A program made the position numbers and the translations under genes. This document shows, piece after piece, positions 20,292 through 63,896 of a stretch of 64,000 nucleotides of DNA. Below the pieces are notes generated by a model that was given only the letters and a program-made list of their open reading frames with translations, made no database searches and was not told the origin of the DNA. Position 1 is the first letter of the stretch; every line of letters starts with the position of its first letter. Source of the stretch: Clostridiales bacterium (GTDB lineage: Bacteria; Bacillota; Dehalobacteriia; UBA7702); contig JAXGQI010000007.1 of NCBI GenBank assembly GCA_040766525.1, positions 3,166-67,165 of the forward strand, read 5' to 3'.

Positions 20292-20441
20292 ACCGCTGAG
20301 ACTGCAGATAAAAGCCGATAGCGTTGTCAAATCAAAGCCCCTGGCCGTAATGGTTGTCCATACTGTACTGCCCCAGGAAAAACGGACATTGAAAAGAATC
20401 CCCCAAACGTAGGATAATAAACTTACGAATGGGGGATTGTC

Positions 20442-20744
20442 ATGTCAAAAAGAAGATATACAAAAGTTCAGGAGCTGTTACCGGAAATCAAAGGAATGCT
20501 CGCGGCAGGATGTACCCATAAAGAAATTGCGGCATATTTTCAGCTGCAAGGAGATCGGCCTGTGCATCAGCTGTTAAAAAGAGAAAGAAGGAAGGAAAGA
20601 AAAGCAGAGTTCGGAATTGTACCGCGCCGCCCTGGTCGCCCGAAAAAGGATGCGGCGGAGGAAGAAAAAGAATATAAAATCAAGCGGCTAGAGATGGAAA
20701 ACCGGTTATTGCGGGATTTTCTTCGTGCCGCTGGAAGGAAGTGA
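20442..20744 (+). CDS. IS3-family transposase OrfA (HTH)
   Basis: 100 aa with an HTH plus leucine-zipper-like C-terminus (KIKRLEMENRLLRDFL). It overlaps orfB by 4 nt, and orfB is in the -1 frame. Confidence 0.85.
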   Translation: MSKRRYTKVQELLPEIKGMLAAGCTHKEIAAYFQLQGDRPVHQLLKRERRKERKAEFGIVPRRPGRPKKDAAEEEKEYKIKRLEMENRLLRDFLRAAGRK

Positions 20745-21598
20745 GGCCATCTGTCAAGTATGAAATCATCTATTTCCGCAAAAATCAATATCCGGTAGCT
20801 ACGATGTGCCGCTTCTTTGGCGTATCCCGCAGCGGTTATTACAACCATATACAGCATAGAGGTAAACCGGAGAAAGATGCTGCTTTGTCAAAAATAATTG
20901 CGGAATGTCAACAGCGCTGCGGGAGCACCTATGGATACCGTCGTGTTTGTTTATGGTTAGTGCGAGAAAAGAATTTGCGTCTTAATCCCAAGACGGTACT
21001 TCGTGTGATGAACAAATACGGACTGCTTTCAGAAATTCGCCGTACTAAGAAATATAAGCGCATGGGTCAACAGCTGCACAGATATGAGAACCTGTTAGAT
21101 CGCAACTTTATTGCTACGCGTCCTAATGCTAAATGGGTAACCGATATTTCTTACATTCATACGGCCCAAGGCGTGCTCTATTTGTCTATGATTCGCGATC
21201 TATATGATCATAGCATTGTTGCCTATCAGACCGGGACAAAACAAACCGTAAATCTTGTATTAAAAACGATTATAGCGGCAATGGAGAAAGAAGAAGTCGC
21301 TGCGGAGTTACAGCTCCACAGCGACCAAGGGCTTCAATACACTTCTCTTGGGTATTTTAACCTAACCAAAGAATATGGCATTACGCCATCGATGTCAAGA
21401 CGCGGGAACTGTTATGACAATGCCATGGCGGAAAATTTCTTCTCCATTCTCAAAACGGAGTGTATATATCGGCAGAAAATCAAAACCTTCGATGAAGCTC
21501 GATTTCTTATTGACGAATACATTGATTTCTATAATAATGAGCGTATACAAACAAAAACAAGCCTGACGCCGCTGGAAAAACGACGTCAAGCTGTCTGA
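20741..21598 (+). CDS. IS3-family transposase OrfB (DDE integrase core)
   Basis: WVTDISYI.. (D), ..LHSDQGLQYTS (D), ..GNCYDNAMAENFF (E) rve-type catalytic triad. Confidence 0.9.
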   Translation: MRPSVKYEIIYFRKNQYPVATMCRFFGVSRSGYYNHIQHRGKPEKDAALSKIIAECQQRCGSTYGYRRVCLWLVREKNLRLNPKTVLRVMNKYGLLSEIRRTKKYKRMGQQLHRYENLLDRNFIATRPNAKWVTDISYIHTAQGVLYLSMIRDLYDHSIVAYQTGTKQTVNLVLKTIIAAMEKEEVAAELQLHSDQGLQYTSLGYFNLTKEYGITPSMSRRGNCYDNAMAENFFSILKTECIYRQKIKTFDEARFLIDEYIDFYNNERIQTKTSLTPLEKRRQAV

Positions 21599-21796
21599 TT
21601 TCACGATATTCTATGTTAGGGTCTTCTTTTCCCTGTCCTTTTATTTCGGGGCAGTACAGTCTAGATACGCTGCGCGTCCAGGGACTTTGCTTTTCCTAGC
21701 TCTAGGCCTTTATCTGCAGCCTCTCATCTTGCCGACCTTGTCGACAATCTGGGCCGTGCGGTTAACCGCACGGCCTTTCGACTGTCAATAAAGTGC

Positions 21797-21986
21797 TTAT
21801 AGCTGTGTTCCAGCAAAACCGCAGACCGCTCATGTACGTCTCTGTACACGTCGCGTCCTGCGGTTTTTCTGCGCCTTGCTCTAAACCCTTTCTTGGCAGT
21901 CTCTTGTTTTATGAGAAAGCGAGGGTTTTTCGACGACCTGTCATCCTGTAGGCCAAAATCCGCTTTCAGTCTCTTTTGTCTACAGT
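21797..21986 (+). repeat. variant (type B) copy of the palindromic repeat family
   Basis: GCTTATAGCTGTGTTCCAGCAAAACCGCAGACCGCTCATGTACG...GTACACGTCGCGTCCTGCGGTTTTT... aligns to the type-A core with paired stem substitutions. Its 3' segment CGACGACCTGTCATyyTGTAGGCCAAAATCCGCTTTCAG recurs at 48438-48475. Confidence 0.6.
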
Positions 21987-62252: not shown

Positions 62253-62500
62253 GAACGAAAGCCGGAGGGAAGGAGATTTCTTTCCGACTTGATATAGATA
62301 GAGCCGCTTGGAATTTTCCAAACGGCTCCTTAGACAGCAGACAAAAGCCGATAGCGTTGTCAACCCAAAGCCCCTGACCGCTTTCGTATGTTTGTACTGC
62401 CCCAGGAAAAACGGACATTGAAAAGAATCCCCCAAATGGTCATGGTATAATAAACTGGACAGAAAGAAAAGCGCGGAAAGGCGGAAAGGGAGTTCAGTTT

Positions 62501-62794
62501 ATGAAACGAGCAGTATATGACAAGCAATTTAAAATGGCCGCGGTAAAACTGGCACAAGGAACAAATCAGTCGGTTACGCAAACAGCCATTGATCTGGGAA
62601 TCAGCGGCAGCAGTCTGCGTAGATGGATCAACGAATATGATGAATATGGAGAAAGTGCGTTTCCAGGGCATGGGAACGCACTTTTTAACTCTACGTATGA
62701 AATCAAGAAACTACAAAAGCAAATTGATGATTTAAAAATGGAGAACGAAATACTAAAAAAACTCCAGGCCTTCTTGAAAGTAAAGAATGTGTGA
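62501..62794 (+). CDS. IS3-family transposase OrfA
   Basis: HTH (..SVTQTAIDLGISGSSLRRWINEY..) plus a leucine zipper. The A7 slippery run at 62755-61 near its 3' end fits a programmed -1 frameshift into orfB. Confidence 0.9.
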   Translation: MKRAVYDKQFKMAAVKLAQGTNQSVTQTAIDLGISGSSLRRWINEYDEYGESAFPGHGNALFNSTYEIKKLQKQIDDLKMENEILKKLQAFLKVKNV

Positions 62795-63648
62795 GGTTCC
62801 AGTTTCTAAAAGAAAATCAAAAGAAATACAATATTCAGAAGGCCTGTAAAATTTTGAAGATCTCACGCAGCGGTTATTATGATTATCTGAAACGTCGAAA
62901 AAGTAAACGTGCGATTGAAAATGAAGTGCTATCGGAAATGATCGAAGACATTTTCCATGAAAACAAAGGGCGTTATGGTGCAAGGCGTATACAAAAGGTA
63001 TTGGAACAAAAGAATATCAAGGTCAATCCTAAAAGAGTTTCCCGCTTAATGAGTGAACATGGTTTAATTGCAAAAGGGACGCGAAAATTCTATCGGTATC
63101 AGGCAAACAAAAACGCTTATGATGAAAAAGAAAATATCCTTAATCAAGTATTCAAAGCAAATGAAAGAAATCAGATATGGGTCGGCGACATCACATACAT
63201 CCCAACAAAACACGGTTGGCTTTATTTGGCTGTTTTCATTGATATTTTTTCTCGTAAGGTAACGGGATGGGCTATGGATACTAGAGTTCGTGATATATTG
63301 GTTTTATCAGCACTTAATCAGGCCGTTGGCAGAGAACATCCCACAGAGGGATTGATCATTCATACAGACCGGGGATCCCAATATACATCTCAGCGCTTTC
63401 AGTCTATGTGTATTCGTTACGGATTCCGACAAAGTATGAGTCGTAAAGGAAATCCTTATGACAACGCAATTATGGAATCGTTCTATCGTACTTTAAAAAG
63501 AGAGCTTGTTCAGGATGCAAAATATGACAACCCTGAACAAGCTCGCATGGATATCTTTAAATATATTGAGACTTATTACAATACCAAACGTATTCATTCG
63601 GCCCTCAATTGGCTTTCTCCAACTCAATTTGAGGCCCAGTATGTTTAA
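62791..63648 (+). CDS. IS3-family transposase OrfB (DDE)
   Basis: WVGDITYIPT (D), IIHTDRGSQYTS (D), GNPYDNAIMESFY (E). Confidence 0.9.
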   Translation: MRFQFLKENQKKYNIQKACKILKISRSGYYDYLKRRKSKRAIENEVLSEMIEDIFHENKGRYGARRIQKVLEQKNIKVNPKRVSRLMSEHGLIAKGTRKFYRYQANKNAYDEKENILNQVFKANERNQIWVGDITYIPTKHGWLYLAVFIDIFSRKVTGWAMDTRVRDILVLSALNQAVGREHPTEGLIIHTDRGSQYTSQRFQSMCIRYGFRQSMSRKGNPYDNAIMESFYRTLKRELVQDAKYDNPEQARMDIFKYIETYYNTKRIHSALNWLSPTQFEAQYV

Positions 63649-63896
63649 TTAACCTTAATTCTCTGTCCATTTTTTCTTGACCTTTCCAGTTAGGGTCTTC
63701 TTTTCCCTGTCCTTTTATTTCGGGGCAGTACAGTTTAGATACGCCGCGCGTCCAGGGGCTTTGCTTTTCCTAGCTCTTGGCCTTTGTCTTATGTCTCTCA
63801 TCTTGTCGGCTTTGCCGACAAGATGAGGCCGACGTAGATTTGCGCCGGCCTTCATATTGTTTATGATTGATTTGTTTAAGCTGTTTTCATAATAAA

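Follow-up and report, generated by a model that had tools for sequence, protein, structure and literature searches.

Insertion sequences of an IS150-like IS3 lineage occupy the apical loop of a hairpin repeat in a Clostridiales genome and probably aim at hairpin tips in general

The window analysed here, a 64,000-nucleotide stretch of a Clostridiales bacterium (C50:3166-67165 of assembly G000), contains insertion sequence (IS) elements of the IS3 family that lie in the apical loop of a ~150-nt hairpin repeat, here called X. Insertion at the X apex is real and is targeted rather than a product of chance, and it is probably explained by an IS150-like IS3 lineage that aims at hairpin tips generally, terminators included; structure appears to be what is recognised. 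The habit itself is already known, and the present case is a new instance of it: the initial annotation of the window, which had likened the insertions to the loop targeting of IS1397, was right in kind, while its repeat-specific reading was too narrow. G000 is a metagenome-assembled genome (MAG) of 1.58 Mb on 52 contigs that is rated 67% complete; C numbers below are its contigs, L numbers are public contigs, and G numbers are genomes of relatives.

The insertion at 62393-63732 and its empty site

The element at 62393-63732 (1,340 bp) has the ends TGTACTGCCCC...GGGGCAGTACA and is flanked by GTT at 62390-62392 and again at 63733-63735. Excising it together with one GTT restores cgtatGTTtagatacg (CGTAT-GTT-TAGATACG), which is the apex of an intact X copy in the same window, copy D. 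The earlier claim that removing this element rebuilds the apex of copy D thus held exactly, with the apex at 43514-43529 and not at 43515-43531. Folded as single-stranded DNA, copy D forms a long imperfect hairpin (-29 kcal/mol, z = -5.6) whose top stem is CGTAT/ATACG and whose 6-nt terminal loop is GTTTAG, so that the duplicated GTT represents the first three bases of the loop. The features of this locus and of its reference site are as follows.

62331-62392, + strand: left arm of an X copy, ending with the first GTT (62390-62392); X profile positions 2-61, E=3e-19.
62393-62436, + strand: type-1-kind left terminal segment, 44 bp, TGTACTGCCCCAGGAAAAACGGACATTGAAAAGAATCCCCCAAA; matches the left terminus of the type-1 IS at 20364 in full, with identity ending exactly where the nested type-2 IS starts.
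62437-63688, + strand: complete type-2 IS3-family element with the ends TGGTCATGG...CCTTTCCA (open reading frames (ORFs), Pfam, NCBIfam, core of L002).
62501-62794, + strand: type-2 orfA, with an A7 slippery run ahead of its stop (ORF list).
62791-63648, + strand: type-2 orfB (ORF list).
63689-63732, + strand: type-1-kind right terminal segment, 44 bp, GTTAGGGTC...TTTCGGGGCAGTACA; 100% identical to the type-1 right end.
63733-63830, + strand: second GTT (63733-63735) and right arm of the X copy that the insert interrupts; match to X profile 61-151, E=3e-25.
43460-43612, + strand: intact X copy D, the reference empty site, with the apex CGTAT-GTTTAG-ATACG at 43514-43529.

As an observation on copy D itself, one terminator hairpin, GAGGAGGGTTGCCCCTCCTCCGA, occurs on either side of it (43431-43455 and 43613-43637), and an alignment showed a duplicated flanking hairpin in many other X copies as well.

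A type-2 element nested between type-1 ends

The initial annotation had treated this element as a second, independent targeter of the repeat. It turned out to be a type-2 IS nested between ends of the type-1 kind, the latter being those of the element at 20364-21658. The transposases of the two types are 33% identical, and the elements nevertheless share 44 bp on the left and 44 bp on the right; in the window composite, identity to type 1 stops exactly at the termini of the inner IS, 62437 and 63688. The inner IS has no flanking duplication of its own (AAA versus GTT), which, together with the abrupt end of identity at its termini, is consistent with a type-1 element that took up the type-2 IS and then lost what remained of its own interior.

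Both elements have the layout and ends of the IS3 family: orfB overlaps orfA in the -1 frame, and the TGTACTG...CAGTACA ends are accompanied by GTT, CTC, and GTC duplications. Pfam found rve and HTH_21 in both OrfBs and HTH_Tnp_1 in the type-2 OrfA, and the NCBIfam model NF033516 (IS3 transposase, cut-off 160) scored 294.8 bits for type 1 and 344.6 bits for type 2, while the type-1 OrfA had no match in Pfam or NCBIfam. By pairwise comparison only, OrfB identity to InsK of IS150 was 39% for type 1 and 33% for type 2, and type 1 accordingly resembles an IS150-like member of the IS3 family.

The type-2 element also exists without the outer ends. On L002, a core that is ~99% identical and runs from TGGTCATGG to CCTTTCCA has its own AAG duplication and very different flanks, and among relatives of the core (82-88% OrfB identity), cores that are 100% identical occur in different contexts within one genome. 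These relatives have duplications of their own (ATT on L048, ATTT on L050, and TCT on L059), and the sites of native type-2 elements with their own ends were AT-rich and not hairpin loops. Several type-2 cores among the relatives are directly adjoined by a 39-bp perfect palindrome, ATATGCACCCCAAAAGT(GTCTA/TAGAC)ACTTTTGGGGTGCATAT, of IS150-type end sequence (L049, L050, L051, and L053), which adjoins either the left or the right side, depending on the copy.

The composite moved as a unit on its outer ends, as its copies in the window, on C9, on C34, and on L003 show. The type-1 OrfAB is taken as the source of targeting because type-1 relatives target loops and native type-2 elements do not; specificity would then come from the type-1 transposase, which might mobilise the composite in trans. 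An AAAC(T)GGACA box, identified by eye, occurs in both kinds of end at equal distance from the tip, and with this box in common, either transposase might act on the outer ends. The nested composite is also a caution, since the ends that an IS bears can lend it the target habit of another element.

Copies of the same ends across the genome and on public contigs

Ends of this kind recur at the X apex. C9:23885-25216 is a composite that is 97.6% identical to the window copy and has a CTC duplication in another X copy, with an empty-type apex of tgtatCTCtatatac; its X arms and unique flanks are unlike those of the window composite. On C35, a type-1 element 100% identical to that in the window has an X left arm (...cgtatGTT|) as its left flank and GTCgatcatggggctt, which is not X, as its right flank. 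On C18, an IS left end at the contig end adjoins a diverged X-like left arm ending in CGTAT| (3/2000 shuffles score as well, p ~0.0015), and nhmmer with the X profile did not support this flank as an X arm. L003, an independent public contig from a Logan assembly of another run, reads ...cttacgtatGTT|TGTACTG followed by type-2 orfA, again at an X apex, and shares its left-junction sequence with C35 while the IS interiors differ.

Together with the GTT site in the window, these copies bear out recurrent and precise insertion at the apical loop of the repeat, and tabulating flanks genome-wide did not place most other copies outside repeat loops. In every X-associated case, the IS left end lies beside the X left arm, and thus in the same orientation; the chance of four independent insertions at one position and in one orientation of a 152-nt repeat is ~3.6e-8.

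Other copies lie in hairpins that are not X. The composite at C34:15074-16412 (92% identical, left tip degraded) is situated between AAGCTCCCAAGGCA and TGCCATTGGGGGCTT, which form a hairpin of -11.4 kcal/mol, and for a type-1 element on C20 (91.6% identical), the duplication is GTC, in the loop of AAGCCCCATGATCG...CGATCATGGGGCTT, another hairpin. A solo right end on C1 showed no hairpin at its site. X or X-like apexes thus make up about 5/8 of the site sets in G000, the others being in other hairpins apart from this one solo end.

These data also bear on the possibility that the insertions are not independent, either because blocks of repeat plus IS were copied by repeat mobility or recombination, or because repeat arms were misjoined to IS ends in assembly. 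The 100% identity of the IS copies on C50 and C35, the left junction common to C35 and L003 in spite of their different interiors, and flank mismatches on public contigs would all be expected from it. Duplications (GTT, CTC, and GTC), repeat arms, and unique flanks nevertheless vary among the X-apex copies, every junction is short enough to be covered by one short read, an independent assembly (L003) has the same kind of junction, and the pattern recurs in isolate and long-read genomes, which together make this explanation extremely unlikely.

The type-1 element and a degraded end in the window

The window contains two further loci at which an insertion into the repeat had been proposed.

20298-20363, + strand: left arm of X copy B, with its last 16 nt off consensus and without a duplication.
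20364-21658, + strand: type-1 IS3-family element, IS150-like (ORFs, Pfam, NCBIfam, and comparison with IS150).
20442-20744, + strand: type-1 orfA.
20741-21598, + strand: type-1 orfB, in the -1 frame.
21659-21751, + strand: right arm belonging to X copy B, with GTC-TAGATACG as its first bases at the canonical position of the apex; match to X profile 60-152, E=1e-26.
42499-42575, + strand: remnant of a type-1 IS (degraded 3' end) with 83% identity to positions 1214-1291 of type 1.
42576-42640, + strand: possible decayed X right arm after the degraded end (weak).

Placement of the type-1 element in the apex of copy B stood for its right junction, which is canonical (GTC|tagatacgctgcg, i.e. GTC|tagatacg), and did not stand for its left flank, which departs from the X consensus and lacks the 3-bp duplication. 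The 16 nt at 20348-20363 align with the X apex and the first bases of the right arm, and the site looks like an imperfect 8-10-bp duplication (GTCCATAC / GTCTAGATAC) instead of the usual 3 bp. For the degraded end, the proposed X right arm gave a modest local alignment starting from ATACG (17/2000 shuffles score as well, p ~0.009), and nhmmer with the X profile found no match at 42576-42640, so the evidence there is weak. A count of three insertions out of three at one position was therefore overstated: the window offers one clean, one half-clean, and one weak case.

Two families of hairpin repeat, one of them interrupted

BLAST and profile searches of the whole assembly split the repeat into subfamilies X and Y. 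X copies (~150 nt; 152-nt profile) start with gagactgcagacaaaagccgatagcg, and 33 full empty copies were found in addition to interrupted and partial ones; Y copies start with gagactgtcaataaagtgcttatagctg, and none of the 36 full copies is interrupted at the apex. The apexes of empty X copies vary (cgtatGTTtagatacg, tgtatCTCtatatac, cgtatgTCTatatacg, and others), giving different loops such as GTTTAG and CTCTAT, and insertions were found in both of these variants. X is practically restricted to G000, with 1 weak match among 40 relatives, and an Rfam scan of the window returned no family that fits the hairpin repeat. One X copy, with the same left flank, is present on two contigs (C22:4555-4707 and C33:4696-4848), which indicates that the MAG holds redundant, strain-variant contigs and bears on the copy counts.

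X and Y copies are frequently adjacent, 2-53 bp apart, in at least 8 places: C1:19158-19471, C1:130603-130941, C7:12044-12362, C8:15112-15428, C13:28809-29122, C40:2709-3027, C45:78583-78855, and 21659-21910 of the window. These mosaic X/Y clusters are reminiscent of the bacterial interspersed mosaic elements (BIMEs) of enterobacteria. A single X copy, C52:49536-49670, has three additional bases at its apex (cgtatgCCAttcatatacg), which could be a simple indel or what a lost insertion left behind.

Two further relationships between repeat and IS were considered and rejected. Mobilisation of X by these IS elements is at odds with X termini that are unlike IS ends, and for mimicry of the IS ends by the X apex (an inverted-repeat junction mimic), the likeness was too weak by eye.

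Relatives insert into hairpin loops of unrelated sequence

A scan for the exact pattern of the IS left end gave no match in the species genome collection and a single contig, L001, in the metagenome scan. This type-1 copy from another metagenome is inserted as ATACCCCCGCTGCGG|IS|TACCCGCAACGGGGGTAT-TTTTATT, i.e. into an ordinary terminator. A DNA search for type 1 within the class recovered partial ends only, in G040, G063, and G006: the insertion in G063 (L005) is at the centre of a perfect palindrome, GTGAAGCACTTAAGTGCTTCAC, and the copies in G040 adjoin the arms AAAGCCCC... and ...CCAGGGCTTTG. A protein search within the phylum returned one distant relative, and a DNA search of E. coli with type 1 gave a sole match of 56 nt, to IS600. 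Relatives of the type-1 OrfB at 74-80% identity number in the thousands, and contigs of six of these were taken for site analysis. Clean sites on L032 (TAA), L042 (GTA), L043 (CCA), L044 (CGA), and L045 (GAA) were all in the loop of a hairpin composed of an A-tract, a GC-stem, and a T-tract.

Such sites were scored by DNA free energy, calculated for the hairpin that has the insertion point in its terminal loop (<=14 nt). Earlier statistics, a stem count and subsequently the number of enclosing pairs in the minimum-energy fold, were poor and were dropped; the control rate had been 15%, since the centre of any segment that is folded is prone to form an apex. In the exploratory set (74-80% OrfB identity), 12/21 sites scored -6 kcal/mol or better on this measure, compared to 1.7% of 3000 intergenic controls from G000.

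As the exploratory set had been judged by eye, an independent test set was drawn: 80 loci from the species genome collection, reduced to 31 non-redundant sites, in taxa that include Oscillospiraceae, Pseudoflavonifractor, Gemmiger, Faecalispora, Christensenellaceae, and a long-read Faecalibacterium chromosome with about 24 copies. Ends were called blind to hairpins, by taking the best pair of 28-nt inverted repeats of the form TG...CA, and loci were accepted with a 3-5-bp duplication and a length of 1230-1340 bp. Here, 17/31 sites fell into terminal loops whose hairpin reached -8 kcal/mol or better; among 1860 controls from the same loci, 2.1% did so (binomial 6e-21). A looser definition (loop <=20 nt, 3-nt slack) captured 20/31 sites and 3.4% of controls, and hairpins are visible at several of the remaining sites, where the loop is larger or the duplication falls on the border between stem and loop. 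Sites from the same genome are not fully independent, but any correction for this would be far smaller than the effect. Duplications were 3 bp at 17 sites, 4 bp at 12, and 5 bp at 2, and the target stems and loops are unrelated to each other in sequence. The orientation of insertion relative to the terminator T-tract (10:5:3) was not significant, and gene contexts were mixed.

Such enrichment could in principle reflect survival, with insertion being near random and only harmless landings in repeat or terminator loops persisting; only fixed insertions are visible, and intergenic hairpins are plausibly neutral. Selection would, however, not confer nucleotide precision: the rest of the 150-nt repeat or the spacer should be equally harmless, yet the insertions coincide to the base, and only about 1-2% of intergenic controls fall into such loops. 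Survival by itself is therefore a very unlikely explanation.

The same sites bear on the idea that the transposase reads the sequence of the X apex, as IS1397 and ISKpn1 are reported to do with palindromic units, and that insertions outside X are off-target events. The X insertions do share one nucleotide position and one orientation, X is over-represented among the occupied hairpins of G000, and Y is never hit. But the same element is found in unrelated hairpins of G000 and on L001, relatives in genomes without X enter loops of unrelated sequence, and the X apex loops themselves vary, with both GTTTAG and CTCTAT having been entered. The repeat as such, which the initial annotation had cast as the landing pad, is consequently an unlikely primary target; these elements and their relatives also enter loops in unrelated hairpins, for the most part intrinsic terminators.

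Two observations on the public contigs stand apart from the site analysis. On L024-L033, from a fermentation metagenome, the same left flanks are paired with different right flanks, and one flank is the reverse complement of another, indicating inversions or recombination between IS copies, or assembly chimeras. The left flank ...GGTTCAGTTCA-GGT-|TGAACTGCCCC occurs on L035, L036, L037, L039, and L040 (Caproicibacterium genomes and related contigs) and looks like an IS right end, 3 bp, and a left end, similar to a circle junction or the remnant of a tandem dimer.

Discussion

IS3-family elements transpose by copy-out, via a circle with abutted ends. In the window, a composite consisting of a type-2 IS between type-1 44-bp inverted repeats would have moved as one unit on its outer ends into the apical loop (6 nt) of one X copy, duplicating 3 bp (GTT). 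The TGTACTG...CAGTACA elements and their relatives in Clostridia would pick targets by shape and not by sequence: after copy-out, the transposase complex may capture DNA at the tip of a hairpin or cruciform, with a 3-5-bp staggered cut inside the loop or at its edge. X repeats and intrinsic terminators would both supply such tips, X being the most used, or the best tolerated, in G000.

Several observations weigh against hairpin tips as a sufficient account of these insertions. X is over-represented, with 5/8 sites compared to <= ~10% of intergenic hairpins as estimated from control rates (p=4e-4), and Y is as hairpin-like as X yet has 0 insertions in 36 copies (Fisher p=0.055); the excess in X and the absence from Y point to a sequence preference, or a better tolerance, on top of the structural preference. 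The apical stem of X has 5 bp only and is weak on a strict local measure, and about one third of the test sites fail the hairpin criterion. The insertion on L001 is without a duplication, and the left junction of the type-1 element in the window is irregular, the X arm being kept up to ...gcccctggccg and followed by taatggttgtccatac with no 3-bp duplication. Left and right flanks are mismatched on several public contigs, and G000 is an incomplete MAG with IS copies that are 100% identical; such copies, with 44-bp ends in common, invite mis-joins. Finally, the whole data set consists of surviving insertions, with no transposition event observed.

With these points weighed, aiming at hairpin tips remains the reading that I favour. 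A broader version of it is more tentative: an IS150-like DDE lineage across Clostridia may read hairpin or cruciform tips regardless of sequence and may be able to carry an unrelated nested IS between its 44-bp ends, mobilised in trans. If this is true, target choice belongs to the transposase that reads the ends and not to the one that a composite encodes.

The mechanism by which DDE transposases find hairpin tips is not understood, and IS1397 is no exception. In this lineage, the wide range of natural targets that are unrelated in sequence and have clean 3-5-bp duplications makes recognition of structure and of sequence separable by experiment. For annotation, the habit accounts for IS elements that lie just after genes without breaking them in these genomes, and for the frequent interruption of hairpin repeats in G000; it is plausible that X repeats serve as a safe haven. 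The breadth of the hairpin-tip habit and the nested composite add a modest interest of their own.

Comparison with known systems

IS150 of E. coli K-12, with the ends TGTACTGCACCC...GGGGTCAGTACA, has the same architecture as the type-1 element with TGTACTGCCCC...GGGGCAGTACA; it likewise has two ORFs with a -1 frame overlap, and a K-12 copy resides in the hok/sok locus. IS1397 and ISKpn1 reportedly have their insertion point in the loop, with a short duplication.

Hairpin targeting outside the IS3 family is known from IS1272/TnSha1 (IS1182 family) of staphylococci, which targets hairpins, often terminators, with little primary-sequence specificity; the stem is cut and part of the hairpin is deleted without a duplication, in both orientations (PMC4923244). 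The likeness lies in the choice of hairpins by a different transposase family: in the elements described here, both arms are kept, the loop and not the stem is cut, and a 3-5-bp duplication results. A full-text literature search, outside which most subscription journals and ISfinder lie, returned no description of an IS3-family lineage that targets terminator loops.

The closest parallels are IS1397 and ISKpn1, which insert into the repeated extragenic palindromes (REPs), or palindromic units, within enterobacterial BIMEs, and for which experimental evidence is reported that specificity is set by the transposase; ISPsy8, also of the IS3 family, occupies REPs of Pseudomonas syringae such that joining its flanks rebuilds the palindrome, and REP targeting has been reported for five IS families (PMC1525189). 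Like these IS3-family DDE elements, the elements described here are tied to repeated extragenic palindromes, and the earlier analogy was apt: the insertions occupy one defined place in the palindrome, joining the flanks rebuilds it, and most copies in G000 are associated with the repeat. In contrast to IS1397 and ISKpn1, the repeat is here a ~150-nt hairpin resembling a miniature inverted-repeat transposable element in a Clostridia-type MAG, one of the two elements is a nested composite, and the lineage lacks specificity for a single repeat, as it also enters ordinary terminator hairpins of unrelated sequence.

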